Positions 4,069 through 23,811 of a stretch of DNA of 64,000 bases are shown here, piece by piece (position 1 is the first letter of the stretch; each line of letters opens with the position of its first letter). This DNA comes from Phycisphaerae bacterium (GTDB taxonomy: Bacteria; Planctomycetota; Phycisphaerae; Phycisphaerales; UBA1924): positions 9,406 to 73,405 of the forward strand of contig JAUHXM010000003.1 of the NCBI GenBank assembly GCA_030426605.1, in the 5' to 3' direction. The position numbers were made by a program, and so were the translations under genes. Below the pieces are notes generated by a model, which saw nothing but the letters and a program-made list of their open reading frames with translations, was not told the origin of the DNA and ran no database searches.

Positions 4069-6695
4069 AGCGCCGCGTTCCTTTTGCGGAAGCGTTGGCG
4101 GACCAGTTCGGCGGTTGTGTTGATGGCAAGCGTCATCACAAACAGCACGAGCCCGCACAGGAAGAGCACGCGGTAGTGCGTCCCGCCGCGTGGCGCTTCG
4201 GGCAACTCGACCGCGATGTTCGCCGCGAGCGTGCGGAACCCGCCGAAGATATTCAAGGACATCTCGGGGGTGTTCCCGGTCGCCATCAGGACGATCATGG
4301 TCTCACCGACCGCACGCCCGAGCCCGATCATGATGGCGCTGAAGATGCCCGACGCCGCGACCGGCAGCACGACCCGGACCGCCGTCTGCCACGCCGTTGC
4401 GCCGCACCCGGTGGAGGCGAACCGCAGGCTCTTTGGCACGGCCATCAACGCGTCGTCGGCGATCGTAAAGATGATCGGGATCACCGCGACTCCCATCACG
4501 ACGCCCACGACGAGCGTGTTGCGTTGGCTGAAGGGGCCGAAGATGGACCGCCGCGGGTCGAACCCGGCGGCCGTGAGCACCCACGCCGAGAACGCCGCGA
4601 GCCCGAGCACCGCGAGGATCTGTACCGCCAGCACGCCGAGCTGCGCGAGCCCGGCGCTGGTGCGTGACATGCCGTCCGTGATCGCGTTCCATTTGGTGAC
4701 GATCAACGCCCACCAGAGTGCCATGACCGCCGCCGCGGCGGGCAGGATCATCGCCATGAACCACCCGGGCCAGGCGCTCCCCTGCCCGCTGTCGAGCCAG
4801 GCGCGGAGCCCCGCCGCTGCGTGTTCGCCGCCCTCAAACAGCGCCGCGTCGATCGCATCGCCGGAGACCGACGCGAGCGCGACGCCCGCGCCGATCACGA
4901 TCACGACGAGACCCGTGAGCGCCACGGTCGGCACGCGCCGGCGCGTGCTCATCGGAATCATCCGCCACACCCCGGCCCCGACGAGCACCGCGACCGGCAC
5001 CACGCCCATCGAGACGATCACACCCGGAAGCCACGCCGCGATGTACGGTGCCACCAACATCGCCGCGATGAACCCGAGCACCACCGAGGGCAGCGAGGCC
5101 ATCAACTCGATCGTCGGCTTGACCGCCTTCCGCCACGACGGGTGCAGGAACTCGCTCGTGTAGATCGCCGCGAGCACCGCGAGTGGCACCGCGAACAACA
5201 TCGCGACGACCGTCGCCTTCATCGTGCCCCAGATCAGCGGCACCAAGCTCAGCTTCGGCTCGCTCCCCGGCGACCCCGTGGACTGATACACGAACGTCGG
5301 CTCGTCGTACCCCTCGTACGGCACCCGCCCGAAGAGGCTGAGCCACGTCGCCTCGGGGTGACCCGGCTCGAGTCGCCAGACCCGGAGCGTCCCGTCGGCG
5401 TGCACTCCGACCGCCGCGTTCACCGCGGGTGCGACGCCCGCCGCGACGACAGCGCCGCCCTCGCCCTTCCAGCCCGCGACTCGTTTCCCGCTCGTGAGGT
5501 TCTCGAGCACGAGCGAGCCGTCTTCGAACCCGACGGCGACGGTGCGGTCCCGCCGACCCACCCCGATCGACGTGACCGCGGCCGTCCCTTCACGCACCGA
5601 GATCGATCGCGTGAGCTTTGACTCGGCGTCACGGCCCGCGCCCTCGGAAGACGTCAGCCGCCAACTCGTGACGCGCCCCTCTGCGTCGCCGATCAGGATC
5701 GCGTTGCCGCCGAGTGCCGCCACCGCGGCGGTCAACCTCGTCCCGCCGTCGTCGAAACGTCCTCGTTCCGCCAGCGCCCACACGCCCCGCTCGACCTCGG
5801 CGTACCGCTCGAACCGGCCGTCCTGCCAGACCATGACCACGTCGGCGTTGGTGCCCACAAGAAAGACCCAACGCGGCGGCACAGCATCGACCGCCGCGTC
5901 CTCGACAATCGGCGTCACGCTCACCCGCTCGCGCGCGGGGCCGCCATCGAGGCGACGCACCGACCGGGCCGACGCGACATAGGCCCGCCCGTTCTCGAGC
6001 ACGGCGACGGTCACACGTTCTCGCGAAGAGACCTGCCGGGACGCGATCGCCGAGACGCCCGCCAGCCCGTCTCCAAGCGAAGCGACCTCTCCGCGCTCCG
6101 CCGCGAGCTCCCAGACCCGGGCCCCGCCCTCCGCGGGCTCCATCGCGACGACCCGGTCATCCGCGTGATCGAACCGAGCCGCCCGCGCGAGCCGATCGGC
6201 CTGTCCCTCATCGACGGCACGCAGCCCAGTCGCCCCTTCGCCGGCCGCGTCCGCGACGAGCGCGTACCCGCTTCGGACCGCGCCGCCGACGAACGCCCCG
6301 CCCTCGAACCCCGCCGCGACCTCACCCGTGCTGGCGCTGACCTCGAGCACCCTGGCCTCGACGCCTTCGGGCAGCAGCGACACCGTCCCCCACGCGTGCC
6401 CCGCGCCGATCTCGACCACCGTCGCCCGGCCACGCGGCGAGACCAGCATCGCCTGCTCGCCCGTCTCGTCGAACACGATGACAGAGGGCAACACCTCGGA
6501 GTCAACAACGACATCCGGCTCGCGTTGAGCATCGCCCCCGCGGAACAGCGGCGCAGCGCTCCCGACAAGGAACACGCAGATCGCGAGCATGGACCCGAGT
6601 ACCGCGAGCCCGCCGAGTGTGATGACGACACCCGCCGCGCTGTCACCCACGCGCACGAGCCGCCCGGTCCGCCTCCTGCCCGACGCGTGCGCCAT
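4065..6695 (-). CDS. pstC: Phosphate ABC transporter permease PstC, long form (about 876 aa) with a large N-terminal periplasmic domain
   Basis: The C-terminal ~330 aa has PstC-type permease sequence (AVPKSLRFASTGCGATAWQTAVRVVLPVAASGIFSAIMIGLGRAVGETMIVLMATGN). The N-terminus has one TM helix followed by ~420 aa of beta-rich repeats. The start is taken at ATG 6695; the track start at 6698 is a TTG one codon upstream. Confidence 0.85.
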   Translation of the reverse strand: MAHASGRRRTGRLVRVGDSAAGVVITLGGLAVLGSMLAICVFLVGSAAPLFRGGDAQREPDVVVDSEVLPSVIVFDETGEQAMLVSPRGRATVVEIGAGHAWGTVSLLPEGVEARVLEVSASTGEVAAGFEGGAFVGGAVRSGYALVADAAGEGATGLRAVDEGQADRLARAARFDHADDRVVAMEPAEGGARVWELAAERGEVASLGDGLAGVSAIASRQVSSRERVTVAVLENGRAYVASARSVRRLDGGPARERVSVTPIVEDAAVDAVPPRWVFLVGTNADVVMVWQDGRFERYAEVERGVWALAERGRFDDGGTRLTAAVAALGGNAILIGDAEGRVTSWRLTSSEGAGRDAESKLTRSISVREGTAAVTSIGVGRRDRTVAVGFEDGSLVLENLTSGKRVAGWKGEGGAVVAAGVAPAVNAAVGVHADGTLRVWRLEPGHPEATWLSLFGRVPYEGYDEPTFVYQSTGSPGSEPKLSLVPLIWGTMKATVVAMLFAVPLAVLAAIYTSEFLHPSWRKAVKPTIELMASLPSVVLGFIAAMLVAPYIAAWLPGVIVSMGVVPVAVLVGAGVWRMIPMSTRRRVPTVALTGLVVIVIGAGVALASVSGDAIDAALFEGGEHAAAGLRAWLDSGQGSAWPGWFMAMILPAAAAVMALWWALIVTKWNAITDGMSRTSAGLAQLGVLAVQILAVLGLAAFSAWVLTAAGFDPRRSIFGPFSQRNTLVVGVVMGVAVIPIIFTIADDALMAVPKSLRFASTGCGATAWQTAVRVVLPVAASGIFSAIMIGLGRAVGETMIVLMATGNTPEMSLNIFGGFRTLAANIAVELPEAPRGGTHYRVLFLCGLVLFVMTLAINTTAELVRQRFRKRNAAL

Positions 6696-6722
6696 CAAAT
6701 CCCCGGTCCGAGTGCGTACGGA

Positions 6723-7766
6723 TCAGAACCCCGGCTCGAGCCCCAGGCTCTCGAGCTCTTCACGTGCGACGCTCGCGGGGATGGGGTACGACCCATCCTT
6801 GAGCACGCCCTCCTGGCCTTCCCGGCTGAACATCATCCGCACGAACTCCGCGCGCAGCGCGTCAAGCTCGCTCAGCCGGTCGAAGTTCATGTAAACATAG
6901 AGGAATCGAGCCAGCGGGTAATCCCCCGTGACGGCATACTCCGCGCTGGGCTCGAATGCGTCGTCCCCCGTCTCAACCGACACGCGCAGGGCCTTCACGC
7001 CCGTGGTCAGGTATCCCACGCCCGAGTATCCCATCGCGTACGGGTCCGTCGCGATCGCCTGGATCACGCCCGACGAGCCCGGCTGCTCCTTGACGGTCGG
7101 CTTGAAGTCGTGCCCGTCGAGCGCCATCTTCTTGAAGAATTTGTACGTCCCCGACGCCGAATTCCGCCCGTACACGGACACGGGTCGCGACGCCCACGCC
7201 CGGTCGGTCACGCCCAGGTCACCCCAGGTCGCGGTGCTTCCCTCGACGCTGAAGACGTCCACGAGCTGCTCGAGCGAGATCTCGTCGAGGGGGCAGTCTT
7301 TGTTAACGAAGACCGCGACGCAGTCGATCGCCACGCGGAGTTCGGTCGGCTCGTACCCGAACTTCTCGCGGAACTCGTCGATCTCCTTCGGGTCCATCGC
7401 GCGGCTCATCGGGCCGAACTGCGACTGCCCCTCCATCAACGCCGGCGGCGCGGTGGACGACCCCTTGCCCTCGACATGCACCCGCACGCCCGGGTAATAC
7501 TCGCCGAAAGTCTGCGACCAGGTGCCCATAAGATTGAGCATCGTGTCCGACCCGACCGATCGGATGTCCCCCGAGATCCCGCGGACCGGCTTGTACGCGG
7601 GGAGTTCCGGGTCGATCGGGGTCGCCTGGGCCTCGCGTGTGGAGTCCGTCCAGACGCCTGTCTCGAGTCCCTCGGCCGACACCGATTCCGAGGCGACGCC
7701 GCGGTCGCACCCAAACCCGAGTACCGCCACGCACGCGGCGATCGCCGCCTTGTTCCAGAATGCCAT
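6723..7766 (-). CDS. pstS: Phosphate-binding lipoprotein PstS family
   Basis: It contains GSDTMLNLMGTWSQTF...VEGKGSSTAPPAL...GPMSRAM, typical of PBP-type phosphate binders. ATG at 7766 has GGAGG 5 nt upstream and gives the lipoprotein signal MAFWNKAAIAACVAVLGFGC. It sits upstream of pstCAB. Confidence 0.85.
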   Translation of the reverse strand: MAFWNKAAIAACVAVLGFGCDRGVASESVSAEGLETGVWTDSTREAQATPIDPELPAYKPVRGISGDIRSVGSDTMLNLMGTWSQTFGEYYPGVRVHVEGKGSSTAPPALMEGQSQFGPMSRAMDPKEIDEFREKFGYEPTELRVAIDCVAVFVNKDCPLDEISLEQLVDVFSVEGSTATWGDLGVTDRAWASRPVSVYGRNSASGTYKFFKKMALDGHDFKPTVKEQPGSSGVIQAIATDPYAMGYSGVGYLTTGVKALRVSVETGDDAFEPSAEYAVTGDYPLARFLYVYMNFDRLSELDALRAEFVRMMFSREGQEGVLKDGSYPIPASVAREELESLGLEPGF

Positions 7767-7892
7767 CGCAGCCTCCAATCGCACCCGGAACGATCTCCGG
7801 TGCACTAAGTCTGCCCACCTCGGGATGGTTTGTCAGAGCCCTGGCGCAAAGGTTCGGTTAAAACGACAGCCTGGGGCCTCACAACGGCCGTA

Positions 7893-8417
7893 TCAGTTCG
7901 CACCGAGCGGCACCGCGGCGGATCCCTGACTCGTTACCGTCCGCCCACTCGCACCGCGGAAGACCCCCGAGAGCTCCAGGTTCGTACGCGGCATCCGATC
8001 GGCGTCTGCACCAAGTCTCAGGAAGAACGAGTACGCGGGTCCCGGGGGGAGTTGCTGTCGCGAGCCGTCCACAACGTCGGCCGGGAAGATCCACCGGGCC
8101 ACCAGGTGCTGATTGCTGTCCAGCAGACGAAACTCGAACTCGCCGTCGGCCCAGACCGGTGTTTGCGACTCCTCGGCACGCGGGAAGAGATAGACGACCA
8201 CCGGGATGGTGTCGGCGTACCCGTCGCCGTCCGAGTCCGTCGGGGTACCGCGAGACAGGAACACCTGAACCGGCTCGGCGTTGCTGTTCCCGATCGGCGT
8301 CGCCCGCGGTGCCACACGCGCCGGAGCCGACCGCGCCGACGAAGTTGACCCGTCGAGCGAGCACCCGCCCGCCGCCAAGCACACCGTGAGCCACGCGGCC
8401 GCCCGTGTCTTACTCAT
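7893..8417 (-). CDS. Small lipoprotein, translationally coupled to the secretin (candidate pilotin-like accessory)
   Basis: ATG at 8417 overlaps the secretin stop (8412..8410) by 8 nt. It has the signal and lipobox MSKTRAAAWLTVCLAAGGC and a DSDGDGYAD calcium-binding-like motif. I recognise no family. Confidence 0.6.
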   Translation of the reverse strand: MSKTRAAAWLTVCLAAGGCSLDGSTSSARSAPARVAPRATPIGNSNAEPVQVFLSRGTPTDSDGDGYADTIPVVVYLFPRAEESQTPVWADGEFEFRLLDSNQHLVARWIFPADVVDGSRQQLPPGPAYSFFLRLGADADRMPRTNLELSGVFRGASGRTVTSQGSAAVPLGAN

Positions 8418-11400
8418 CGGCCCACTCCTTGTCGTACAACGGGATCCACCGGTCCTCATCCGCGTTCGGGTCATCACCGAGCCTCAGCATCCCGTCCACT
8501 CCAGACCGGTCCTGCAGGCTGTTCAACGAACGCTCGGACAGGTCGCGCTGCAGCTGGCCCGACACGCCGTTGCGATCGCCGGGGATGACATGCGGCGTCA
8601 GAATCACGAGCAGCTCGGTCTTGATCTGCGCCTGATCTGTCGAGCGGAACAGCCCACCGACGACGGGCAGATCGCCGAAGAACGGTGTCTTGGTCTTTGT
8701 CACGCTGTCGCTCGTCTGGATGAGCCCGCCGATCACGACGGTCTCGCCGTCCTTGATCGTGACGGTCGTGTCCACCCGCCGCTGGGTGATGATCGGTGCC
8801 TGGAAGTTCTCGTCGATCTGCGTCGTGCGATCGGACAGAATCGAGATCTCCGGCTGAATGTCCAGGCGGACGTACCCGTCCGAGCTGATCGAGGGCGTCA
8901 CGTCGAGGGTGATGCCCACGTTCTCGCGCCGGACGATCGCGGTTGTCACGTTGTCGCGCCGCTCAACCCCGTCCGTGATCGCGATGTTCTCACCGACGTT
9001 GATAAACGCGGCCTCGTTGTCGTTCACCTGGACCTGCGGGCGGCTCAGAACCTCGAGCTTCCCCTGGCTCTGCAGCGCCCGAATGATGAGCCCGAAGTCC
9101 GAGCTCGCGACGGCGAGGTTGGGCACCCCCAACGCCGTCGCGACGCCGGTGCCCGCGCTCAACGCGTCGAACACAAACCCGTCTCCGCCGATCCGGCTGC
9201 CGCCCACCTGGTTGGTCAGCCCGTTCTCCGTCGTGGTCGCGATCGTGCCCCCGATCGCGATATCGACGCCGTACTCCTCGCTCGCGTTCAGCGTCACCTC
9301 GGCGATGAGCACCTCGATCATCACCTGCGGCGGCGACGCGTCGAGCTCCTCAACGATCGCCCGGACCGTGTCGATGTATCGCGGCGACGCCGAGATGATC
9401 AGCTTGTTCGAGCTCGGGTCACCGATCACAGTCACCTCCTGTTCGAGCTCGCGCAGCAGCGAACCAGACAGCTGCGGGCCGAGCGTCGCACGACGCAACT
9501 CCGACTCGCCCGCGAAGTACTGCTGAAGTGTGGTCGCGAGCTCGTCCGCCTGCGCGTTCTTGAGGTGATACACGACGCGCTCGCGCTCGTTCGCCTCGAT
9601 CGCGTCGAGCGCCGCGACCACTCGACTGACCTCCTCCATCAATTCGGGAGTCCCGCTCGCGAGCAGCGTGTTCGTGCGGCGATCGACGGTCACCGCGAGC
9701 TCGCGTCGCTCGTCCGAGATGGGCGTGACGGCCCGCGCCGAGAGCGGAACCTCGCCATCGCCAGGGGCTTGCCCGTCCTCTACCGGGGCCTCGCCGTACG
9801 GCGTCAGCACGTACCGATCGCCGCGTCGCTCGAGGTTGAAGAGATCAACCAGCAGCTCCTGCATCTGCACCGCGTCCGCGTTCGTAAGCCGGAACGCCTC
9901 GATGACGCGGTCGCCGCGCGTCTCGCCGTCCAGGTCCTCGACCATCGCCGCGATCAGGTCCATCAGCTCCGGCGGCGCTTTGACGAGCACCGAGTTTGTC
10001 CGAGGGTCGGGCGTAAGCGTCACCTGATCGCGGATGTCGCCGTCCAGCAGCGCCTCCGCCCGCGCCTCCTCGAGCCGATCACTCAGCACGCGCACGCGCG
10101 TCGCCCGCTGCCCCGCGCCGGCACCAGAGATCGACCGCCCGGCCAGCACGTCCTCGATCAACGCGACGGTGTCCCGCGCGTTCGCCGAATCGAGCGGGAT
10201 CCGCCGAACCTCCTCGATCAGGCCCGGCGCCGCCGTGTCCAGCCGCTCGGCGATCTCGCGGATAGCCGCGACGTCATCGGCCGTTCCCGTCACGAGCAAC
10301 GCGTTGAGTCGCTCGCTTGGAACGACCGCCACCGCGCGCGCGCCGCGACGCTCGATCTGCGGCTGCACATACAACTCATCCACAGCCCGAGACACCTCGA
10401 CCGCGCGCCCCGGTGCCTGGAGTTGAATGAGCGTCGTGCCCTCCGGTGACTCCGCGGCGAGCCCGCCGGTCAGCGCTCCAATCAGCTCGTTCACGAGCAC
10501 GAGATTCTCCTCGCTGCACGCGACGATCAGCACGCCGGCGGCCTGATCGGCTTCGATCGAGAAGACGTCCATCGGAGATTCACGCCCGCCGCGCGCCCGC
10601 GCCGCGTCCAGCCGGTCGCGCATGAGACGCTCGATCCGTGGCGCCAGCGCGTCCACGTCCGCTCCCGGCACCTCGATCACGTGCAGCCCGACCGCGAACC
10701 GCGCCTCGGGCTGGTCGAGCGTCGCGATGAGCTCTTGGAGAATCTCGAAGCTCCGCGGGCTCGTCGAGACAACCAGCGCGTTCGTCCGCTCGTCCACGTT
10801 CACCGTCACCCGGTCTTCTTCTCGTGCCGAGGGCAGACGCGCGCGTTCGTCGAACGTGTCGTCCACGATGTCCGCGACCCGGCGCGCATCCGCGTGCACT
10901 AGCGGGATGACACGCACGCTGTTGCCCGACCCGGCCCCCTCGACATCCAGCAACGCCACCAACTCCTCGATCGCGCGCACGTTCGTCGGGGTCGCGACCA
11001 CGACCAACGCGTTCATCGACTCCTCGGGCGTGATGACCACCCCCGCCATCGGGGCGAACACATCCGTCTCGACACCGCCCTCGGCCGCACCCACGCGGAG
11101 CCGGCCGATCTGCCTGCGGAGGCCGACCGCCTCGGGCGTCTCGCCGACGCCCTCGATCAGCACCTCTCGCAACAGTTCCGACATTGTCACGGCGTCGGCG
11201 TGTTCGAGTGGGAGCAGCACAACGTCCAGCCACCCACGGTTGGCCGCATCGCCGTCGAGCTGCGCGATCAGCACCTCGACGAGGGCCAGCGACTGTTCAG
11301 GGCCGGCGACGATCACCGAGTTCGTGCGCTCCTCCGTGGTGACCGAGATCTCTCCCGCGAGGGCCTGCCCCGCCGCCGTGGTCGGCATGGTCGCTCGGTC

Positions 11401-14400
11401 GGTCCCGCTGGCGCGGCGCACCCGCTCACCCTCGCGGAACAGGTCGTCGAGCACGCGCTCGACACGGTCCGCCGCCGCGTTCTCGAGCGGGAAGATCCGC
11501 ACCGTGACCGCCTCGCCGAGCGGCAGCCTGTCGAACAGACGCACCACCTCCTCGACCGCCGCGACGTTCGGCTCGCTCGACGCGATCAGCACCGAGTTGC
11601 TGCCGCCGTCCGCGATCAGACGCACGGGGATCGAAAGATCCAGCACGACCGGCTCGCCGCCGCGCCGCAGTCGCAGCCGGCGGACATGCTCGGCCAGCGC
11701 CCGCGCCGGGCCGGCGTCCGTCACGCTCGCGTCGCCGTCCAGCATCGCGCGCACGCGTTGGACAACCTGCCCCGCATCCGCCAGGCGAAGCCGCACCATG
11801 CCCACGTACTGCTCACCAGTCCCGGCGGACTGATCGAGCACGCTCACGAGCCGCTGGATCACCGCGACATCCGCCGCCGTCCCGACGACACCGATCGCTG
11901 ATCGCTCGGGCAGTTCGACCAGGGAGACCGGGTCGATCACGAGCCCGGGCCGGTCCGCCGGCGACGCGCGCGTCACACCCATCCGCTCGAGCGTCCGGAT
12001 CATCTCGACCGGGGTTGTCTTCGTGATCTCGACGACGGTCATCCCTGCCCCGAACCCCGCCGCGCCCATGGCGGGCGACTCATCGCGTGGGGCTTCCTGG
12101 GCGTCGGGCCCGCCGTCGAGGTCCTCGACGAGCCCGCGCACCTGCTCGAACATCTCGTTGGACGCCGAGACAATGAGCGCGTTCGTCGTGCGCTCGACCT
12201 GCACACTCAGCACCTCGCCCCGCTGGCGCGCGATCGGCCCGAGCGAACGCTGCACCGCGTCGCGAACCCGCGCCGCCGGGAGCGACCGGATCCGAACCAC
12301 CCGTGCCCGCGGCTGTGTCGTCTCCGCCTGGTGCTCCATCTCCGCGATGAATGACCGGATCTCACCAAACTCGGCGCCATCGGCGCGCACGAGCACCGCG
12401 CCCGAGAGGTCGTCACCCTCGATCAGCACGCGGCGCGGGTTCGAACCGGTGCCTTGCGCCACGAACACCCGGCGCGCCGCGTCCGCGATCACGCTCGCCC
12501 GCCCGTGCCTGATCGGCACAATCCGCGCGTCGGGCAAATCAAGGAAGTCAGGGACGTCGAGCTGCTCGACAATCTGGCGGATCCGATTGAGCTCCTTGCG
12601 GCCCGCGAAGACGAGCAGCGAGTTCGTCTGTACCTCCGCCGAGACTACGGGTACACCCTCGGAACCGACCAGCACCGCGGGCTCGACGAAGTCGCGATCG
12701 CGGTTGCCGCGAGCACGGCGCTCTGCTTCCAGGCGCACCCGCTCCTGGTCGAGCTGGTCTTCAAGCGGCTGGCGGAAGCCCTCGTTGAGCGCGCGAGCGA
12801 CGCTGACCGCCGACGCGTGCTTCAGCGGCATCACGACCAGCTGCTGCGACGTGTCGTACTCCTCCGTATCGAGCGTCACGAGCAGCTCGCGGATGCCTTC
12901 CCAGGTGGAAGCGTCCGCGCTGATGACGAGCGAGTTGGATGCCGGGTCGGGCACGATGCTGACCGCGCGCTCCGCGCTGGTGGTCGCCTCGGGCGCGAAC
13001 CGTCCGTAGAACACCTTGAGCGCCTCGGCGGTCTGTTCCGCATCGGCGTACTCCAGGCGCACAAACTCGGTCGTCCGCTCGCTCTCGCGTTCAACGTCAA
13101 ACTGCTCGATCATGCGCGCGATGAACGCCATCTCATCGACGGTCGCGGTCACCGCGATCGTGTTCGAATCCAGCAGGTAGTCGATCCCCGGACGGGGCTC
13201 ACCATCGCCGCGTGGGCGATTTCTGACCAACTCACGGAGCACGATCGCCAGTTCCGTCGCGTCCGCGTGGTCGAGCGCGAACCGCTGAAACTCGACGGGC
13301 GGCTGCTCGGGCTCGGTGTCCAGTTCCGCGATCTTGGTGCGGACGATCTCCAGATCATCGGGTGCCCCGGTCAGCATGACAGAGTTCGTGCGCGTGACGG
13401 GCGTCACCTTGACGCGCACCGTCTCGGGCAACGCGCTCGTCAGGGCCCGCGACAGGTCCGCCGCGCGGGCCGAGGTGAGCGCGATCACCTCGACAACCTC
13501 GCCCTCGCCGACGCCCGCCTCGACGATCGACTCGACCTGGAGCACCGCCTCCTCGACGAGCGAGCGTTTGCCCACGAGCAGCAGCACCTGCCGACGGCGA
13601 TCGACCTCGACCTCGACCTTGTTGGGGTCGCGCCCGCGCCAGGGGTACCAATTGGGCGTGCCGGACGTGTTCTCGACGATCCGCGCGATCGCGTTGAGAT
13701 CGGTCCCCGGTGCCGCGACGGCACGCACGATCACACCGCCCACGTCGTCGCCGGGGCGGTCGAGCTCCGAGATGATGCGTTCGATGATGTCGAACGTGTC
13801 GCCGTTCCCGAAGAGCAGAACGGTGTTCGTTCGCTCGTTGGTCTGGACGTAGACCCGATCGTCGGAGCCCGAGCCGCGGATGCCGCGGAACCAGGGGGAA
13901 CGCTCCCACTGCAGCTCCCAGGTGATGTTCTGGACGGTGTCCTCGATGTCGCTGACCTGGATGTGCTCGAGCGTGATGATTCGGTAGTCGAACTCACGCC
14001 CCTCCGCGGGTGCGTCAAACTGTGTAATCAGCGACGCGATCTGAGCGTAGTCGTCGTCGGATGCAGAAACGATGATCGTGCCGGACCGCTTATCGCCGAT
14101 GATCGCGGCGTCCCCCCCGCCGGACCGGATCCCGCGTTGGCGGTTGATCCGCGCGCGATCGCGGAAGAAGGTGCGGAGCGAGTCCGCGACCGCCTCGGCG
14201 TCCGCGCTCTCGAGCTTGATCGAACGCACCGGGTAGCTCGCGCCCTGCTCCTGATCCAGCTGCGCGACGAGTGAGCGGATCTCTTCGATGTCGGCTTCGG
14301 GAGCCCGCACCACGAGCACCCGGGCATCATCCTGCGGCGAGATCCGCATGGATTCACGCTTGCCGGGATCCCGCCCGACGAGGACCTCCTCGATTACGCG

Positions 14401-17400
14401 CGCGATCGCGCTGGGTCGTCCGTCGCGGATCCCGATGATCTCGAGGACCGAGTCCGGGAGGTCCTCGGACCTGTCCGCCTCGGCGAGGATGCCCTCGACC
14501 TCCTCGTGCTGGGCGCGCGTCGCCGTGACCAGCAACGCGTTGGATCGGTCATCGGCGACGAACCGGGCTCGGGGCGCTTCCCACGCAACCGGCCCCTGGC
14601 GTGACGCGTCGAACAAGGCTTGCAGGGTGCGTGCCAGCGCGTTCGCCTCCGCGTGCTCGAGCTCGTAGCGTCGGATCGCGAGCCGCTCGCCCGCCGGGCT
14701 CTTGTCGATGCTCTCGACCAGCGCGTCGATGACATCAAACGCGGCGTCCGGCGCGGCGATCACGAGCGCGGTGTAGCTGGGATCCGTCGTCACCGTCACC
14801 ACCGCCGGGTCGATCGCGGCAGTCCGGTCGGGCTCGCCCTCGACGCCAGGAAGCGTGATCTGTACCTCGCCCGTTCGGCGTCCCGGTCCTCGGTTGGGGT
14901 TGAGCAGGCCCTGCATGGTCTGGCGCGCTCGGTTCGCGTTCACGTTGTCGAGTTGGTAGATCTTGACTGTGAGCTCGATCGGGCGCTCGGCCCGCGCCAG
15001 TCCGCCGATGAGCTCGCGGACCGAGACAAAGTCCGTGTCGTTCGCCCAGACGATGAGCGACCCCGTCGCGCGGTCCGGTGTGACGCCGACGCGCCCCGTG
15101 AACCCGCCCGGGTTGTCCGCGCTCGTGCGCCCGAGCATCCGCACCGTCTGGTTCACGTACGACGCGATCGCGTTCGGGTCCACGCCCGCCGGGAGCTCGA
15201 CGATGCGCACCGCGGTCGCCTCGGGCGGCGTCTGGCGCTCCAGATCACGCACGATGCGCTGCACCTGATCGCTCACACGCTCCGAGCCCTCAACTACAAG
15301 CGAGTTCGTCGCGGGATCGACGGTGATCCGCACGACGGGCTCGTCCGCGTCCTCGTCGGTTGCGGCCTCGCTTTCCGGCGCGGGCTGCCACCCGACGACG
15401 GGTCCAACCATCCACGACCACGGCGCCACCCACCCGGCGTCAGACCGCTGATCTTGTGATTCGTTCTCCCCTGCCGCATCGGGATCGGGCTCGCTCTTCG
15501 CGCCCTCCATGAGTTCCTCGGCGCTGATGACTTCGACGCGGACCCCACCGCGCCGTTCGAGCAAATCGCGCACACGGCGTGCGGCTTCCTCGGCGTCCAT
15601 CCGCGACGGATCGACCGGGACCGTGCGCACGTTCCCGGTTGCGGACGCCGCCGCCGCATCGAGTCGGCGGGCCAGATCGCGCACGGCGCCGACCTGCTCG
15701 GGCGTGCCGCGCACGATGATCGCGTTGCTGGACCGGTCCGAACGGACCGTCGGCGGCGCGATCGCGGACTCGGCGTCGTCGTCGAACATCGCCCGTACCG
15801 CGGGCTCCACCTGCGCCGCGTCGGCGTTCGCGAGCGGGATCACGTCGATGCGCCGGTCGTCGCCGGCGTCCGCGTCTCCGGGCACGTCGAGCGAGCGGGC
15901 GAGCTCCTCGCCCATGTCGAGCAGGTCGAGCGGGGCGGTGATGAGGACGGCGTTCGTGCGCGCGTCCGCCGCGACGCGCGCCGTTCGCACATCCACGGGG
16001 CGCCCGCGACGCTCGAGTTCCCACACCATCTGCCATCGGAGCCACACGGGGACCAGGTCCACGAGGTTGTCCTGGGCGAGCAGCCGCTCGACGGTCGGCG
16101 CGACCGCCTCGGCGCGGGCGTGCTGCAGCACGACGGTCCGGACACCAAGCCCCGCGACCTCCGCGCGCTCGTCGAGCGCGGCGACGAGGTCCTCGGCTCG
16201 GCGCATGGCATCGGCGCTGCCGGTCACGACCACCGTGTTCGACCCTGCTTCGGGGGTCACGCTGGGCACCGGATCACCCGGGGGGACGTCCGCGTTGAGC
16301 GCCGCGTTGAGCGCCCGGGCGACGCTCTCGGCTTCGCCCTCCTCGAGTCGGAACGCGCGGACCTCGACCGGCGTTGTCGGCGGTGCATCCAGGGTCGCGA
16401 TCATGGACGCCGCGAGTTCCATGAGCGACGCGGGTGCCTCAACGATCACCCGATTCGTGCTCGCCTCGGCACGCGCCGTGGGACGTCCGATCGGCTCGCC
16501 CGACGCCTGCGCGCGGCGCAGCGACTCGGGCCACCGGTTGCGGTCGTTGAGCACGCGGTCTAGCTCGCGCGCGACACCCGCGGCGTCGGCGCCCGCGAGG
16601 TCGAACGCGCGCGTGACGATCTCGGGCGTTTGGGCAACGCGGTCGAGCCGCGACGCGAGGTCGGAGACCACACGGTGCGTCTCGGCGTCCGCCGTGATGA
16701 CGAGCGCGTTCGACGCTTCGATCACGCGGATGCTTGGCGGGTCCACCCCTTCGAGTTCGGGGGTCTGTGCGAGCATGGCCAGCAGCGGCTCGACAAGATC
16801 CGCCGCGTCCATCGCGCGGACGTCGATCACGCGGGTGATGAACCGGCTCGCGATCTCGCTCTGCCCCTCGGCGATGAGACGCTGCACGCGGGCGACGCCG
16901 GCCGCGGACCCGATGAGCGTGACGGACCGGTCCTCAGCGTCCACCATCGCCTGGACAGGGTCACGCCGGCCCTCATCGGTCAGCGTGTCGATCCGGATTG
17001 CATCGCTCACGACCGCTTCCGGTTCGCCCCGTGCGATGGGGATTCGCCGCGCCGTGGCGCGGACGCTCGGTTCAACATCAAGCGACGTCAGGACGGAGAC
17101 CACGGAGGCCGCCGCGTCGCTCGGTCCGGCGATCGCGATGCCCGACCCGTCGGGCGTCGGCGTGGTCCGCACGGTCGAGCTCACGTGCCGTGGCAGCAAG
17201 CGGTCGAGCAACCCCTGCACGGATCTTGCGTCGAGGTGCTCGAGCTTGACGACGCGGACCTCGCCCTCGGGCATGCCCTCACGCCCGGTGATGCCGGGGT
17301 CGAGGTCTTCGAGAACCGTCTCGAACTCCTGGATCTGCTCGTCCGTGCCGGATACGACCAGGCGGGCGACCGAGGGGAGCGCTCTGATGACCGGGCGATT

Positions 17401-18351
17401 GGGCGCGGGCACGCCCGCGAAGAGCGGCGCGAGGTGCCTCTGTGCCTCGTTCGCGTCGAGGCGTTCGACGCGGTACGAACGAACAATGCGGCCAGTGCCT
17501 CCGCCCGCGGGGACGTCGAGTTCCTTGATCAGGTCGTCGATCACCTGCAACCGCGCCGGCGGGCCGACCGCGATGACCGCGTTGAGCTCGTCCGAGGGAG
17601 ACAAACGCAGTGGCGGCTTGGAGACGTCGTCGTAGACCTTCGGCTGCTTGTTGTTGTCCATCACCACCAGTTGATCGCGTTCCGGGACGAGATCGCGGAG
17701 CGTCTGCACGAGCTTGCCCGCCTGCGCGTGGCGCAGCGGGAAGAGCCCGTAGTCCACATCGGCGGGACGCTGGGCGTCCACCCGTGCGATGAGCCGCGCG
17801 AGTCGTCGGCACTGCTCGCCGGTCTCGACGATGACGAGGAGATTCTGTGCGTCCACCGATTGGACCATGCCGGGTTCGCCCACGAGTGGGGCGAGGCGTT
17901 CGGCGAGCACCGCCGCGAGCGCGTTCTCGAGCGGGATCGAGAGCGTGACGTACTCGTCCGCCGGGACGTCATCGAGTTGATCGAGCCCGACGACAGGCGT
18001 CGGACGGCGCGCGGCGTCGGCGATGGATCGCAGGAACAGGAACGAATCCTCACGCTCCACGCGCACGCCGTGCGTCTTGAATGTGAGGTTGATGATCTCG
18101 ACCGCATCCGCGACCGAGTAGGCCTCGGGGGAGATGAACGTCATCGTCGCCTCGGGCACCGGCGTCTGCCGGATGACGGGCATGCCCGTCTGCCGGGCGA
18201 GCACGTCGAGCACCTGATCGTACGGCGCGCCGTTCAGCGTGAACCGCACGGGTGCGTTTTGCGCGTCATCCGTCGCATCTTGCGCGAGCACGCCAGTCGG
18301 CGTGACGACACAAAAAACGAGTGCGGCGAGTACGGATCGTGTCACCCTCAT
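8410..18351 (-). CDS. gspD: Giant secretin (GspD/PilQ superfamily), 3,313 aa, N0 + ~34 N-domain repeats + C-terminal secretin pore domain
   Basis: A single uninterrupted ORF. It begins with signal peptide MRVTRSVLAALVFCVVTPTGVLAQ and an N0-like start. It ends with a secretin domain at aa ~3086-3259 (nt 8575..9096): LSRPQVQVNDNEAAFINVGE, ITLDVTPSISSDGYVRLDIQPEIS, PFFGDLPVVGGLFRS, ELLVILTPHVI. In between, modules ending in xR[T/S]N[AST][LV][LI]V ... LD recur. ATG at 18351 overlaps the upstream stop (ATGA). Confidence 0.9.
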   Translation of the reverse strand: MRVTRSVLAALVFCVVTPTGVLAQDATDDAQNAPVRFTLNGAPYDQVLDVLARQTGMPVIRQTPVPEATMTFISPEAYSVADAVEIINLTFKTHGVRVEREDSFLFLRSIADAARRPTPVVGLDQLDDVPADEYVTLSIPLENALAAVLAERLAPLVGEPGMVQSVDAQNLLVIVETGEQCRRLARLIARVDAQRPADVDYGLFPLRHAQAGKLVQTLRDLVPERDQLVVMDNNKQPKVYDDVSKPPLRLSPSDELNAVIAVGPPARLQVIDDLIKELDVPAGGGTGRIVRSYRVERLDANEAQRHLAPLFAGVPAPNRPVIRALPSVARLVVSGTDEQIQEFETVLEDLDPGITGREGMPEGEVRVVKLEHLDARSVQGLLDRLLPRHVSSTVRTTPTPDGSGIAIAGPSDAAASVVSVLTSLDVEPSVRATARRIPIARGEPEAVVSDAIRIDTLTDEGRRDPVQAMVDAEDRSVTLIGSAAGVARVQRLIAEGQSEIASRFITRVIDVRAMDAADLVEPLLAMLAQTPELEGVDPPSIRVIEASNALVITADAETHRVVSDLASRLDRVAQTPEIVTRAFDLAGADAAGVARELDRVLNDRNRWPESLRRAQASGEPIGRPTARAEASTNRVIVEAPASLMELAASMIATLDAPPTTPVEVRAFRLEEGEAESVARALNAALNADVPPGDPVPSVTPEAGSNTVVVTGSADAMRRAEDLVAALDERAEVAGLGVRTVVLQHARAEAVAPTVERLLAQDNLVDLVPVWLRWQMVWELERRGRPVDVRTARVAADARTNAVLITAPLDLLDMGEELARSLDVPGDADAGDDRRIDVIPLANADAAQVEPAVRAMFDDDAESAIAPPTVRSDRSSNAIIVRGTPEQVGAVRDLARRLDAAAASATGNVRTVPVDPSRMDAEEAARRVRDLLERRGGVRVEVISAEELMEGAKSEPDPDAAGENESQDQRSDAGWVAPWSWMVGPVVGWQPAPESEAATDEDADEPVVRITVDPATNSLVVEGSERVSDQVQRIVRDLERQTPPEATAVRIVELPAGVDPNAIASYVNQTVRMLGRTSADNPGGFTGRVGVTPDRATGSLIVWANDTDFVSVRELIGGLARAERPIELTVKIYQLDNVNANRARQTMQGLLNPNRGPGRRTGEVQITLPGVEGEPDRTAAIDPAVVTVTTDPSYTALVIAAPDAAFDVIDALVESIDKSPAGERLAIRRYELEHAEANALARTLQALFDASRQGPVAWEAPRARFVADDRSNALLVTATRAQHEEVEGILAEADRSEDLPDSVLEIIGIRDGRPSAIARVIEEVLVGRDPGKRESMRISPQDDARVLVVRAPEADIEEIRSLVAQLDQEQGASYPVRSIKLESADAEAVADSLRTFFRDRARINRQRGIRSGGGDAAIIGDKRSGTIIVSASDDDYAQIASLITQFDAPAEGREFDYRIITLEHIQVSDIEDTVQNITWELQWERSPWFRGIRGSGSDDRVYVQTNERTNTVLLFGNGDTFDIIERIISELDRPGDDVGGVIVRAVAAPGTDLNAIARIVENTSGTPNWYPWRGRDPNKVEVEVDRRRQVLLLVGKRSLVEEAVLQVESIVEAGVGEGEVVEVIALTSARAADLSRALTSALPETVRVKVTPVTRTNSVMLTGAPDDLEIVRTKIAELDTEPEQPPVEFQRFALDHADATELAIVLRELVRNRPRGDGEPRPGIDYLLDSNTIAVTATVDEMAFIARMIEQFDVERESERTTEFVRLEYADAEQTAEALKVFYGRFAPEATTSAERAVSIVPDPASNSLVISADASTWEGIRELLVTLDTEEYDTSQQLVVMPLKHASAVSVARALNEGFRQPLEDQLDQERVRLEAERRARGNRDRDFVEPAVLVGSEGVPVVSAEVQTNSLLVFAGRKELNRIRQIVEQLDVPDFLDLPDARIVPIRHGRASVIADAARRVFVAQGTGSNPRRVLIEGDDLSGAVLVRADGAEFGEIRSFIAEMEHQAETTQPRARVVRIRSLPAARVRDAVQRSLGPIARQRGEVLSVQVERTTNALIVSASNEMFEQVRGLVEDLDGGPDAQEAPRDESPAMGAAGFGAGMTVVEITKTTPVEMIRTLERMGVTRASPADRPGLVIDPVSLVELPERSAIGVVGTAADVAVIQRLVSVLDQSAGTGEQYVGMVRLRLADAGQVVQRVRAMLDGDASVTDAGPARALAEHVRRLRLRRGGEPVVLDLSIPVRLIADGGSNSVLIASSEPNVAAVEEVVRLFDRLPLGEAVTVRIFPLENAAADRVERVLDDLFREGERVRRASGTDRATMPTTAAGQALAGEISVTTEERTNSVIVAGPEQSLALVEVLIAQLDGDAANRGWLDVVLLPLEHADAVTMSELLREVLIEGVGETPEAVGLRRQIGRLRVGAAEGGVETDVFAPMAGVVITPEESMNALVVVATPTNVRAIEELVALLDVEGAGSGNSVRVIPLVHADARRVADIVDDTFDERARLPSAREEDRVTVNVDERTNALVVSTSPRSFEILQELIATLDQPEARFAVGLHVIEVPGADVDALAPRIERLMRDRLDAARARGGRESPMDVFSIEADQAAGVLIVACSEENLVLVNELIGALTGGLAAESPEGTTLIQLQAPGRAVEVSRAVDELYVQPQIERRGARAVAVVPSERLNALLVTGTADDVAAIREIAERLDTAAPGLIEEVRRIPLDSANARDTVALIEDVLAGRSISGAGAGQRATRVRVLSDRLEEARAEALLDGDIRDQVTLTPDPRTNSVLVKAPPELMDLIAAMVEDLDGETRGDRVIEAFRLTNADAVQMQELLVDLFNLERRGDRYVLTPYGEAPVEDGQAPGDGEVPLSARAVTPISDERRELAVTVDRRTNTLLASGTPELMEEVSRVVAALDAIEANERERVVYHLKNAQADELATTLQQYFAGESELRRATLGPQLSGSLLRELEQEVTVIGDPSSNKLIISASPRYIDTVRAIVEELDASPPQVMIEVLIAEVTLNASEEYGVDIAIGGTIATTTENGLTNQVGGSRIGGDGFVFDALSAGTGVATALGVPNLAVASSDFGLIIRALQSQGKLEVLSRPQVQVNDNEAAFINVGENIAITDGVERRDNVTTAIVRRENVGITLDVTPSISSDGYVRLDIQPEISILSDRTTQIDENFQAPIITQRRVDTTVTIKDGETVVIGGLIQTSDSVTKTKTPFFGDLPVVGGLFRSTDQAQIKTELLVILTPHVIPGDRNGVSGQLQRDLSERSLNSLQDRSGVDGMLRLGDDPNADEDRWIPLYDKEWADE

Positions 18352-19340
18352 GGGGTTGCCTCCTCGGCGCGTGCCTGCGCCGCCTGATCAGCGTGTTCCG
18401 GCGCGGGGCGCCGATCGTCGAGCGTGTCGCCGACGCGGACGGCGTGGGTCTCGCCGTCGATGATGAAGATGGCCCGCTCGCCCGAGCCCGTCTCGAAGGT
18501 CGCGTTGAGCACACGCCCTCCGGGGACGACGACCCGGCGTTCGCCCGAGCGTTGATTCAGCATGAGCGCCTCGACCCGCACCCCCTCGATAAGCCCGGTG
18601 ACACGCCACTCGGCGTACCCCGGCAGCGGGTCGGACGGGGGCGGTGATGGCTCCTCCGCGACGGCCAACTCGGCCCCGAACGGGTTCGCATGCAACACCG
18701 CCGCGAGGTCGGCGAGCGTGGCCTCGTTGGGCATCGCGAGCGCAGGCAACCCGTCGATGCCGCGCGGGATTGTGTCCATCCGCAGCGACGCGAGATCGAC
18801 GCGCAGCTCGAACCGCGTCCGCTTGCGGTTCGCGGGCTTGATCGTGAAACCCTCGATGCGGTGCACCCAGGGTTGCGCGCGGAGCGTCGCGATGGTTGTC
18901 AGAACGGACTCTAAATCGCCCTCGCCCGCGAGCCACGCGTGCACAACGTGAAAGTCTGGCGCCGACCGCAGGATCGGGCCGAGCCGGCGTCCGGCGCGCC
19001 GAGCCGCGGGGCTCGCCATCGCAACGGGACGACCGTTTCCCGACGAGACCGACCCGAGCCCCGCGTGGTCCGCGACGGCCGCGAGACCGGCTCGGAGGGT
19101 GTGCTCGAACTCGTCGGACGGGCCGGCGATCATCGTGGAACCGAGGGCATCGCGCCGCGCCGCCCACGCCGCACGCCCCGACATGAGTGATTCCGCGTCG
19201 CGGCGCATTTTCTCGGCGCTCTCGATCTCCACGATGAGCGACCGCGCGGGCGCGAGGTAGAACCGCTCGGCGAGCGCCCATGCCGCGAGGGCGAGCACGA
19301 GCGACCCGACAGCCGTGATGGCGAGGCGTGTCCGCGTCAC
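18348..19340 (-). CDS. Bitopic inner-membrane assembly protein, GspM/PilO-like N-half fused to a PilP/GspC-like C-terminal beta domain
   Basis: The N-terminus is a TM helix (LAITAVGSLVLALAAWAL) followed by a coiled segment. The C-terminus (VTGLIEGVRVEALMLNQRSGERRVVVPGGRV...AIFIIDGETHAVRVGDTL) resembles PilP/GspC HR-type beta domains. The call also rests on its position between the gspL-like gene and gspD. GTG at 19340 overlaps the upstream stop (GTGA). Confidence 0.5.
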   Translation of the reverse strand: MTRTRLAITAVGSLVLALAAWALAERFYLAPARSLIVEIESAEKMRRDAESLMSGRAAWAARRDALGSTMIAGPSDEFEHTLRAGLAAVADHAGLGSVSSGNGRPVAMASPAARRAGRRLGPILRSAPDFHVVHAWLAGEGDLESVLTTIATLRAQPWVHRIEGFTIKPANRKRTRFELRVDLASLRMDTIPRGIDGLPALAMPNEATLADLAAVLHANPFGAELAVAEEPSPPPSDPLPGYAEWRVTGLIEGVRVEALMLNQRSGERRVVVPGGRVLNATFETGSGERAIFIIDGETHAVRVGDTLDDRRPAPEHADQAAQARAEEATP

Positions 19341-20785
19341 GGCACCTCCCCGTCCTGCTCGCGGAGCGTCTTGACAAGATCGAACGTGTACCCGTCGCCC
19401 GCGTCCGGGCCTTGGGTGAGCACGTGGAACTCGCCTTCATCGAGGAACGAACGGCGGAGCGCACGCGTACCGGTCGCGTCCTGCGCTTCGCCCGAGACGC
19501 GGAGGGTCGTCTGGGTTTCGCGGGTCCAGACCCCGGGGTAGGCGTTGGTTCCCGGGGCGTAGGTGATGCCGATCCGTGCGTCGCCACGGAGCTCTTCGAG
19601 GGCTGTGCCCGGAACGGACTGGACCGCCTGCGCGACGCTCCGGATCGGGGGCACCCAGGACTCTCCCGCCCGCACCCACTGCTCGGCGTGTGTCAGGCGT
19701 GCATCCCGCGCGTAATACTGGCCGAGCTGCGCGACGGACTCCGTCGCGCTCGCCTCGGCACGGTCGAGCCTCGCTTGCAGTCGCGAGAGGTGGATCGAGC
19801 CGGCCAGGATCGAACCGCCGACCAACGCGACGAGCGCCAAGAGCGCGAGCAACGCGAGTTGCCGGCGTTTGGCCCCCACATCCGGCGGCCGGTGCGGCGA
19901 GACAAAATCGATCGCGTCGAGCCCGCGCGCCTGTCTGGCGATGATCCCGGCGAGCGGCGCCGACGCCCGGCGTTCCACGGACGACACCCCGCTTGGCCAG
20001 TCGATCGCGACGGAGGCTTCAGAAGGGCTCAGCCCGAGTTCGAGTTCGCAGGCGCTGGAGATGCCTTCGGTCAGCTGGTCCGAACCGAGCACGACGATCC
20101 GCGAGGGCTCCGTGTCGATCCCCGCGGCCCGAGCGCCCATGAGCGTGCGTTTGACCTCGACGGCGGTGCGCGCCGAGACACGGTCGAGCGCGCTCAGCTC
20201 GGGGTCGCCGATGCCGATCTCGGAGTCGATCGAGCGAGCGAAGACGGGGACACCATCGATCGCGAGGACGATCTCGGTCGTGCGGTCGCCGGGTGCCACG
20301 ACCACGGCGTGCCCGTTCCCCCCAAACACGGCCGCGCCCGCGGCGACCATCTCAGCACCCACGAGCCTGAGCCTTGACCGGCTGCACGCCTCGCGCACCG
20401 CCTCGATACGCTCGGACGCGGTCGATCCCGCGATCGCGTGGGCGTGCGTGCCGTCTCGGACGAGGAGTGCGTCGTGGACCGAGTCCCCGGTGCGAGGTGT
20501 GGCGTGCCGCTCGATCTGCAGCGTTGCCATCCCGAGCCACTCGCCGGTGGAGGCGAGTTCGGGTGGCACATCGAACCGCTTGAGGATCGTCTCCGAACGC
20601 GGGACGGCGAGCACGACCGGGCAACGCGGGAGCCCGAGACGCTCGATGATCGACGCGATCGAGGCGTCATCGCCGCACGCGGCGCTGTCGCATCGCACCA
20701 CGCGCACGCCCGTGGACGAATCGCGGCCCACGAGCGCCCGGAGTTCTCCCTGGTCCAACAGGATGACGCATCGGGTGGCAGCCAT
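19337..20785 (-). CDS. gspL: GspL-like protein (PilM-like cytoplasmic actin-fold domain + TM + PilN-like periplasmic domain)
   Basis: The architecture is a ~290-aa cytoplasmic domain, a TM helix (LALLALLALVALVGGSILAGSI) and a ~170-aa periplasmic domain. It lies between gspK and the gspM-like gene. ATG at 20785 (MAATRCVILLD) overlaps the gspK stop by 1 nt. The track start at 20812 was rejected. Confidence 0.6.
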   Translation of the reverse strand: MAATRCVILLDQGELRALVGRDSSTGVRVVRCDSAACGDDASIASIIERLGLPRCPVVLAVPRSETILKRFDVPPELASTGEWLGMATLQIERHATPRTGDSVHDALLVRDGTHAHAIAGSTASERIEAVREACSRSRLRLVGAEMVAAGAAVFGGNGHAVVVAPGDRTTEIVLAIDGVPVFARSIDSEIGIGDPELSALDRVSARTAVEVKRTLMGARAAGIDTEPSRIVVLGSDQLTEGISSACELELGLSPSEASVAIDWPSGVSSVERRASAPLAGIIARQARGLDAIDFVSPHRPPDVGAKRRQLALLALLALVALVGGSILAGSIHLSRLQARLDRAEASATESVAQLGQYYARDARLTHAEQWVRAGESWVPPIRSVAQAVQSVPGTALEELRGDARIGITYAPGTNAYPGVWTRETQTTLRVSGEAQDATGTRALRRSFLDEGEFHVLTQGPDAGDGYTFDLVKTLREQDGEVP

Positions 20786-22784: not shown

Positions 22785-23188
22785 CACGGCTGCCCCCCCA
22801 TCGCGGTGCGCGGCGTCCCCAGACGGACAAGCTGGCGGGCGACGTACACGGGCCTGTCGGACGACGACCCGGCGCGTCGGGCCTCGACGATCACGAGCGT
22901 CAGCCCGGCGTGCTCGGTGCGCTGCGTGTCGATGCGGACGTCCCACGCGCGTTCCGAATCGTCACGCTCGCCGGTTCCCGAGGAGTTGTTCAGCGACTCT
23001 GGCGTTTCGATGCCCGCGTCGATGAGCGCCATGGCGGACCACGCCGCGTCTGCGGCACGCGTCCGATCGTCGGCGCGGACGATCGTGTCCGTCGTGCGCC
23101 CGATCGCGGCACCGATGGCCAGCATTCCCGCAACGAGCACCGCGAGGGACAGGAGGATCTCCAACAGCAACACCGCGCGGCGCGTCAT
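22784..23188 (-). CDS. gspI: GspI-like minor pseudopilin (non-canonical leader)
   Basis: It begins MTRRAVLLLEILLSLAVLVAG, which has Glu at +5 if cleaved after Ala. It is small (134 aa) and lies between the gspH-like and gspJ-like genes. ATG at 23188 overlaps the gspH stop (ATGA). Confidence 0.55.
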   Translation of the reverse strand: MTRRAVLLLEILLSLAVLVAGMLAIGAAIGRTTDTIVRADDRTRAADAAWSAMALIDAGIETPESLNNSSGTGERDDSERAWDVRIDTQRTEHAGLTLVIVEARRAGSSSDRPVYVARQLVRLGTPRTAMGGQP

Positions 23189-23766: not shown

Positions 23767-23811
23767 TGGAACCTCCGGCCCTTCCAAACAACCCGAACTG
23801 TGACGCCCGGG

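Follow-up and report, generated by a model that had tools for sequence, protein, structure and literature searches.

A giant secretin with 34 tandem N-domain modules in a type II secretion-like locus of a Phycisphaerales bacterium, and the family to which it belongs

Characterised secretins carry N-domains of a KH-like fold that stack as periplasmic rings below the pore, and in type II secretion systems (T2SS) the N0 domain contacts the inner-membrane platform through the HR domain of GspC. Full-length GspD has about 650-750 amino acids (aa), and PilQ of Thermus thermophilus, which bridges an unusually wide periplasm, has about 750. To our knowledge, no characterised secretin comes near 3,313 aa, and no known system strings tens of ring-building domains in one chain. 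A protein of this size is encoded in the stretch of DNA analysed in this study (the window; 64,000 nucleotides of a Phycisphaerae bacterium, assembly GCA_030426605.1, contig JAUHXM010000003.1, G+C content ~69%), and an original prediction, made from the letters of the window, had taken it for a secretin far larger than any characterised one, which holds.

GspD, PulD and XcpQ of the T2SS (PDB 5wq8, 5zdh, 6hcg and 4ec5) likewise consist of a signal peptide, N0, Secretin_N domains and a PF00263 pore, are the structures that Foldseek matches best to either end of the giant secretin, and share with it an operon containing gspE/F/G/H/I/J/K-like genes; however, they have N0 and three N-domains, in solved chains of 350-609 residues, compared with N0 and 34 modules in the 3,313-aa protein. 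The nearest precedent is T. thermophilus PilQ, a known secretin lengthened by extra N-domain rings, in which N0-N5 stack as rings into a channel with a length of ~35 nm and a width of ~15 nm (PMC4463427), although it has six N-domains instead of 35, belongs to a retractile type IV pilus system and has no specific sequence relation to the giant secretin. InvG (SctC) and related ring proteins, of which InvG is a significant Foldseek match, build stacked oligomeric rings from the same type of small beta-alpha-beta-beta-alpha fold but have one to three ring-building domains each.

The gene for the giant secretin is one uninterrupted open reading frame (ORF) of 3,313 codons, as originally predicted. 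Searched against Pfam, its product matched Secretin_N (PF03958) with an E-value of 3.5e-262 in 27 separately significant stretches, and Secretin (PF00263) with an E-value of 2e-46 in a single stretch at aa 3092-3256 (158 bits against a cutoff of 27.5, with model positions 1-168 of 169 aligned), in agreement with the pore domain proposed at aa ~3086-3259. Weak matches to KH families were also found. Among the NCBIfam models, TIGR02517 (GspD) scored best, with 934 bits against a cutoff of 351, a total that is inflated by 17 repeat matches; in its best stretch, aa 2817-3258 are aligned with model positions 162-592 of 600. TIGR02515 (PilQ) reached 342 bits against a cutoff of 284, well below the GspD model, and of the marks of a type IVa pilus PilQ, the Pfam scan showed no AMIN domain in the protein, nor were PilM/N/O/P or PilT families present in the gene cluster. 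With a PF00263 pore, Secretin_N domains N-terminal to it, a signal peptide, an N0 domain recognisable at the level of fold, and a gene clustered with those for GspE, GspF, GspG and minor pseudopilins H-K, the protein is a genuine secretin of full length, belonging to a T2SS-like (type IV filament) machine of a Phycisphaerales bacterium. The nearest relatives come from Phycisphaerales metagenome-assembled genomes (MAGs), so that the planctomycete host suspected originally is borne out.

Between N0 and the pore region, a hidden Markov model (HMM) built from the modules of the protein itself, with one round of iteration, divides aa 130-3006 into 34 adjoining modules, 32 of them at i-E<1e-3, which is exactly the number that had been counted by eye, compared with 27 for Pfam alone. 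The modules are 65-138 aa long and are joined by linkers of 0-6 aa, except one of 19 aa. Their pairwise identity averages 21% and reaches at most 39%; no super-repeat periodicity was found in the array, nor was any inter-module offset favoured, and in the DNA of the gene, Tandem Repeats Finder and a direct-repeat search detected no tandem or long direct repeats of note. Because the modules are only ~21% identical and are not repeated at the DNA level, the array is an old protein-level repeat, neither a recent duplication nor an assembly stutter. The expected beta-alpha-beta-beta-alpha elements are present in both of the AlphaFold2 (AF2) models calculated, covering aa 28-430 and aa 2718-3313. 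One module, the eleventh, contains an insert at aa 961-1001 (window 15348..15470, minus strand) with a Trp/Gly/Pro-rich core, SDAGWxxPxxWMxGPxVGxQPA, which is kept in the two closest orthologues (loci L001 and L081, described below) and is flanked by variable acidic stretches; this insert may serve for interaction or for contact with a membrane.

Both ends of the protein are those of a secretin. The signal peptide, read off the sequence, is MRVTRSVLAALVFCVVTPTGVLA, with cleavage before QD, and giant homologues likewise begin with signal-peptide-like sequences. For the N-terminal domain, a profile searched against the PDB found Neisseria PilQ N0 (4ar0) as best match with an E-value of 0.005, GspD and XcpQ N0 domains following at E~0.7, and the Pfam N0 model gave no match in the giant secretin. 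The AF2 model of aa 28-430, with a mean predicted local distance difference test score (pLDDT) of 82.6, matched PulD with an E-value of 1e-14 and the N0-N1-N2 crystal structures of XcpQ and GspD with E-values of ~1e-10. The original reading of an N0-like start is therefore right at the level of the modelled fold and finds weak support in the diverged sequence. At the other end, the AF2 model of aa 2718-3313 (mean pLDDT 66) comprises three beta-alpha-beta-beta-alpha domains followed by a large beta-structure, and Foldseek placed GspD, ExeD, PulD and EpsD at the top (E-values 1e-25 to 1e-29), with InvG, PilQ, RcpA and phage pIV further down; the weakest match among the GspD, ExeD, PulD, InvG, PilQ and pIV pores still had an E-value of 1e-14. 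In its predicted structure, the PF00263 domain thus has the fold of a gated secretin pore. Low-confidence helices follow in the C-terminal tail (model residues 547-595, corresponding to aa 3264-3312), which has no sequence likeness to a known S-domain, and an S-domain-like role for this tail is conjecture only.

A scan of species-representative genomes gave 80 loci for comparison, and L081 comes from a third assembly, GCA_001657375.1. In L001 (Phycisphaerales MAG, JAVJSB010000006.1), the orthologue is colinear over 3,312 aa with 84% identity and 13 gap columns, and the gene called in L081 encodes a colinear orthologue of 3,308 aa with 83.6% identity and 5 gaps. The ratio of nonsynonymous to synonymous substitution rates (dN/dS, Nei-Gojobori) relative to L001 is 0.14 overall and lies at 0.06-0.28 in every 300-codon window, indicating purifying selection along the whole length of the secretin. 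With the more distant Phycisphaerales loci L015, L011 and L025, it remains colinear over 2,000-2,300 aa at 37-41% identity, clearly above the 21% between its own modules, indicating that the modules have kept their positional identity. Length differences between the lineages fall mainly in the N-terminal and middle part, the colinear blocks lying 218-541 aa further along in L015, L011 and L025. That the long ORF is an assembly artefact, a gene fusion or a decaying pseudogene can be dismissed with near certainty: high G+C content does produce long spurious ORFs in other frames of the window, but nothing speaks for this in the secretin ORF, which is free of DNA repeats, is filled with domains from end to end, evolves at low dN/dS throughout and recurs as colinear ORFs of 3,308-3,313 aa in three independent assemblies, and 135 of the 149 family representatives introduced below are longer than 2,000 aa.

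The giant secretin is not singular. An exhaustive HMMER search with its last 1,199 aa against 1.84 billion cluster representatives (50% identity) returned 43,312 matches, 2,837 of them at E<1e-30, and the best 150 are mostly 3,000-5,500 aa long, with a maximum of 5,532. Family statistics were drawn from the 149 strongest-scoring listed representatives, leaving out fragment P0001. An N0-like domain of ~100 aa is present at the N-terminus in 88 of these, and 87 with both an N0-like start and a pore domain were taken as full-length; they share the architecture of signal peptide, N0, array and pore, measure 2,428-5,277 aa (median 3,981) and contain 20-56 modules (median 39). As 84% of the full-length representatives exceed 3,313 aa, the protein of the window is a below-median member of a large family with sizes up to ~5,300-5,500 aa. 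The uncharacterised entries from Phycisphaerales, other Planctomycetota and Verrucomicrobiota MAGs, which make up most of the labelled relatives, are true family members that show no difference in kind, with ~84% identity in the orthologues of L001 and L081. Among the 80 loci, 36-46 modules occur in most Phycisphaerales, in several other Planctomycetota and in MAGs labelled Verrucomicrobia or Limisphaerales, often in an ORF that still runs past the 10-kb flank. A further group carries 23-26 modules, loci with the labels Pirellulales, Planctomycetaceae or Thermoguttaceae carry 6-8 (1,130-1,461 aa), and the secretin of Poriferisphaera has 3 (716 aa). Some contigs with giant secretins (L011, L042, L054 and L057, also L041, L044 and L066) are labelled, for example, as Leptolyngbya, Anaerolineales, Klebsiella, Bifidobacterium or Akkermansia muciniphila, probably through mis-binning or mislabelling of the records, and taxon labels in the locus list must therefore be read with caution.

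The impression that the giant secretin is unique, rejected on the strength of the exhaustive search, arises readily from word-indexed searches, which returned only proteins of at most 1,042 aa or a single fragment when given the C-terminal 596 aa or the N-terminal 430 aa, and which missed the window's own protein although the collection contains it. Such searches appear to be blind to giant repeat proteins, and others could look falsely unique for the same reason. In the databases, members of the family are named only 'type II secretion system protein D' ('GspD') or 'secretin N-terminal domain-containing protein'. A full-text literature search covering planctomycete reviews, Phycisphaerae genomics, giant-gene surveys and papers on secretin structure found no description of multi-N-domain giant secretins, an absence of evidence only, as most subscription journals lie outside its coverage; prior work on equally long secretins, which would have made the original prediction known rather than new, was likewise not encountered. 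The literature on giant genes in the Planctomycetes-Verrucomicrobia-Chlamydiae (PVC) bacteria discusses adhesin-like and enzyme-like giants. Giant secretins are therefore a large family present in the databases and, as far as this search shows, undescribed.

The secretin gene stands as the last large one in a translationally coupled operon, in which genes for GspF, GspG and H-, I-, J- and K-like proteins, the 491-aa and 330-aa proteins, the secretin and a lipoprotein follow one another on one strand, each stop overlapping or abutting the next start (Table 1). The gene order is identical in the independent genome GCA_001657375.1 (L081). The ORF at 22962..23363 was considered as a gene and rejected, its product being an Arg-rich out-of-frame sequence; the GspI-like gene uses another frame. 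The MshEN domain of the divergently transcribed ATPase is also a feature of the ATPase of the MSHA pilus. Between gspF and gspE (25747..27324) lie genes for glutathione peroxidase (25747..26700, minus strand) and 6-pyruvoyl-tetrahydropterin synthase (~26896..27306, plus strand), which are kept in L081.

Table 1 Features of the giant secretin and its operon in the window
Feature	Position in window	Strand	Evidence or remarks
GspE-type ATPase with MshEN N-terminal domain, divergent	27350..29026	+	Pfam T2SSE E 6e-124, MshEN E 8e-21; same in L081
GspF platform protein	24541..25731	-	Pfam T2SSF E 1.5e-51, two stretches
GspG major pseudopilin	23812..24342	-	Pfam T2SSG E 8e-20 and N_methyl
GspH-like prepilin-type protein	23185..23787	-	N_methyl; TIGR01708 gspH E 3e-7, below cutoff
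GspI-like small gene, start approximate	22784..23188	-	tblastn with the 134-aa gene of L081: 64% identity, 22784..23104
GspJ-like prepilin-type protein	22167..22787	-	N_methyl motif; weak GspJ/GspI matches; counterpart of the 204-aa gene of L081
GspK-like minor pseudopilin	20785..22170	-	Pfam T2SSK E 5e-7; NCBIfam T2SS_GspK E 5e-6, below curated cutoff
491-aa protein: soluble N-terminal half, then transmembrane segment at aa ~320-340	19337..20812	-	Conserved in L001, L036 and L081
330-aa protein: N-terminal transmembrane segment, Pro-rich linker, C-terminal beta-rich domain	18348..19340	-	Stop abuts secretin ATG
Giant secretin gene	8410..18351	-	3,313 codons and stop, ATG start, no internal stop (ORF list; Pfam, NCBIfam)
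Sec-type signal peptide, aa 1-23	18283..18351	-	Basic n-region, hydrophobic core, VLA/Q
N0-like domain, aa ~30-129	17965..18264	-	Profile against PDB; AF2 and Foldseek; conservation
34 contiguous Secretin_N-type (beta-alpha-beta-beta-alpha) modules, aa 130-3006	9334..17964	-	Pfam, 27 stretches; self-trained HMM; AF2 secondary structure
Secretin pore domain PF00263, aa 3092-3256	8584..9078	-	Pfam; Foldseek of AF2 model
C-terminal tail, aa 3257-3313, predicted helical	8413..8583	-	AF2
Small lipoprotein gene, 174 aa, starts MSKTRAAAWLTVCLAAGGC	7893..8417	-	Overlaps secretin stop; tblastn conservation

No recognisable GspC, GspL, GspM or GspN was found in the cluster. The 491-aa and 330-aa genes occupy the position of GspL/GspM/GspC in classical operons, the 491-aa gene standing where GspL or PilM-N normally lies, and the 330-aa protein is kept upstream of the secretin in L001, L015, L025, L036 and L081. 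Neither protein had a match in Pfam (E-values up to 5), in NCBIfam (E-values up to 1) or, with phmmer, in the PDB; for the 330-aa protein, a family profile and a profile of its C-terminal beta-rich domain searched against the PDB, as well as a homologue search, matched nothing. Homologues of both proteins are labelled 'hypothetical' in the databases. They may be analogues of the platform components that have diverged past detection, and it is conjecture, based on gene position, that the 330-aa protein docks the inner-membrane platform to N0 in the manner of the GspC HR domain or PilP.

Downstream of the secretin, tblastn found homologues of the 174-aa lipoprotein directly 3' of the secretin gene in 25 loci, and a 172-aa gene takes this place in L081. 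In the 16 loci where the N-terminus is readable, it is a signal peptide ending in a lipobox-like xGC, which together with the position after the secretin marks the protein as a conserved lipoprotein partner. Several homologues contain a motif of the DSDG(D/N)GYxDT type, resembling a calcium site. The 174-aa protein has no match in Pfam or NCBIfam and no sequence likeness to a known pilotin; its position and lipobox make it a candidate pilotin or accessory factor.

With a probability of about 0.5, we propose that the array builds a very long, rod-like and probably hollow periplasmic stalk below the pore, which links the outer-membrane pore to the inner-membrane platform. The polypeptide is exported via its Sec signal peptide, and the ~34 closely joined N-domains of KH-like fold that separate N0 from the pore would stack as rings. 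Scaled from Thermus PilQ and from GspD structures at 3-4.5 nm per ring, 35 rings would give a stalk of ~100-150 nm, and 12-15 protomers of ~355 kDa would add up to a complex of ~4-5 MDa. Such a stalk would keep the pore joined to the pseudopilus platform across the periplasm of PVC bacteria, which is enlarged and variable, and a pseudopilus or pilus would polymerise within the tube. The linkers of 0-6 aa favour a rod over beads on a string, and that 88 of the 149 representatives have kept N0 at the distal end makes sense if N0 must still reach the inner-membrane platform. Moreover, the module number varies from 20 to 56 across lineages while the last ~2,000-2,300 aa (~22 modules and the pore) stay colinear, which suggests that the array may act as a tunable spacer. 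Besides the short linkers, the positional conservation of modules and the distal N0, the stalk draws support from the Thermus PilQ precedent and from the enlarged periplasm reported for planctomycetes (PMC8882080, citing Boedeker 2017).

Several observations weigh against a stalk of this kind. The distal N0-N2 rings often show poor order in the T2SS secretins that have been solved, and rings need not form at a great distance from the pore. The AF2 monomer models of the two ends have confident domains but predicted template modelling (pTM) scores of only 0.40 and 0.47, from which domain packing and inter-domain geometry cannot be read. The 491-aa and 330-aa proteins upstream, which would have to supply the platform contact, have no detectable similarity to GspC, GspL, GspM or PilMNOP. 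In addition, cultured Phycisphaeraceae cells are 0.4-1.3 um in diameter (PMC8882080), and a tube of 100-150 nm amounts to 10-30% of this, a hard radial fit unless the periplasm is locally very deep. The lack of a fixed geometry in the models and the length of a straight stack relative to the cell would equally suit a genuine secretin in which a few pore-proximal N-domains form rings and the other ~30 make 12-15 flexible or folded-back arms, as a basket or cage, a multilayer wall, or tethers that bind peptidoglycan, the inner membrane, substrates or partners in the enlarged periplasm. The great plasticity of module number and the conserved Trp-rich insert in one module, which could be an interaction site, also point in this direction; however, the very short linkers and the position-specific conservation of modules fit a defined rigid assembly better, and the distal N0 of 88 of the 149 representatives is understandable if this domain still has to reach the inner-membrane platform. 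We consider this arrangement, the main alternative to the stalk, rather unlikely.

What the machine carries may be protein, fibre or slime. Compatible with a stalk as well as with arms is the possibility that it is no protein-secreting T2SS but a nozzle extruding a surface pilus or fimbria, or exopolysaccharide slime, with the long tube guiding the filament or polymer. PilQ/GspD-family secretins act as slime nozzles in cyanobacteria and myxobacteria (PMC12475490), cultured Phycisphaeraceae produce fimbriae or a dense extracellular matrix (PMC8882080), and the MshEN domain of the ATPase and the above-cutoff PilQ score (342 against 284 bits) are in line with a pilus-like system. On the other hand, the cluster bears T2SS-type markers (Pfam T2SSG and T2SSK, weak GspH/J matches), GspD is the best NCBIfam model, AMIN domains are missing and no PilT-like retraction ATPase adjoins the operon, making a nozzle unlikely on balance, although the polymer option is worth testing in view of the slime-nozzle secretins. 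The original prediction had speculated that crateriform structures of planctomycetes are built on the giant secretin. In its favour, planctomycete pili arise from crateriform structures (PMC12673574), and the periplasm of planctomycetes is enlarged (PMC8882080). This link has not stood up and is now very improbable, since crateriform structures are typically reported in the class Planctomycetia (PMC8882080, PMC12673574), whereas the described Phycisphaeraceae, the group nearest to the host, are without them (PMC8882080), equally large secretins occur in Verrucomicrobiota-labelled MAGs, and the loci recovered under the labels Pirellulales, Planctomycetaceae and Thermoguttaceae, all of which fall within Planctomycetia, have only 6-8 modules.

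Elsewhere in the window, a second type IV filament-type gene pair lies at 51825..55908 on the minus strand, ~26 kb from gspE and ~36 kb from the secretin gene, encoding an MshEN-containing ATPase of GspE/PilB-like type (54103..55908) and a protein resembling GspF/PilC (52874..54106), followed by unannotatable ORFs; no second secretin was found within the whole window. Downstream of the secretin operon, at 920..7805 on the minus strand, a phosphate-type ABC transporter operon encodes a PBP_like_2 protein, two permeases and an ATPase. The permease ORFs are unusually long (877 and 778 aa), with BPD_transp_1 confined to their C-terminal part and weak WD40/beta-propeller matches in the 877-aa ORF, and their 5' ends may be over-extended in this G+C-rich DNA.

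In summary, a genuine, hyper-expanded secretin of 3,313 aa from a Phycisphaerales bacterium represents a large family of giant secretins. The finding is thus not unique to the protein of the window, and its most exciting part is inferred. As a tentative picture, plausible but short of likely, PVC bacteria (Phycisphaerae, other Planctomycetota and Verrucomicrobiota) would build a previously unseen envelope organelle, a secretin tube of 4-8 MDa with 20-56 stacked rings and a length of ~100-200 nm that runs from the outer membrane to the retracted inner membrane around a pseudopilus or pilus, with ring number as an evolvable ruler of periplasmic depth and with a lipoprotein and two novel inner-membrane proteins replacing the pilotin and GspC/L/M. 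The family exposes an annotation gap, in which proteins of ~3,000-5,500 aa bear the plain label "GspD" and the conserved genes of their partners are called "hypothetical". Secretins rank with the best-studied machines of the outer membrane, and their structures and models all assume 3-6 periplasmic rings and ~10-35 nm, an assumption that a widespread family with 20-56 N-domains per chain breaks. Giant secretins bear on the limits to polymerising the ring-building N-domain, a matter of interest to the design of protein nanotubes, and they offer a molecular handle on an old question of PVC cell biology, the working of envelope-spanning machines in a periplasm that is enlarged and variable.

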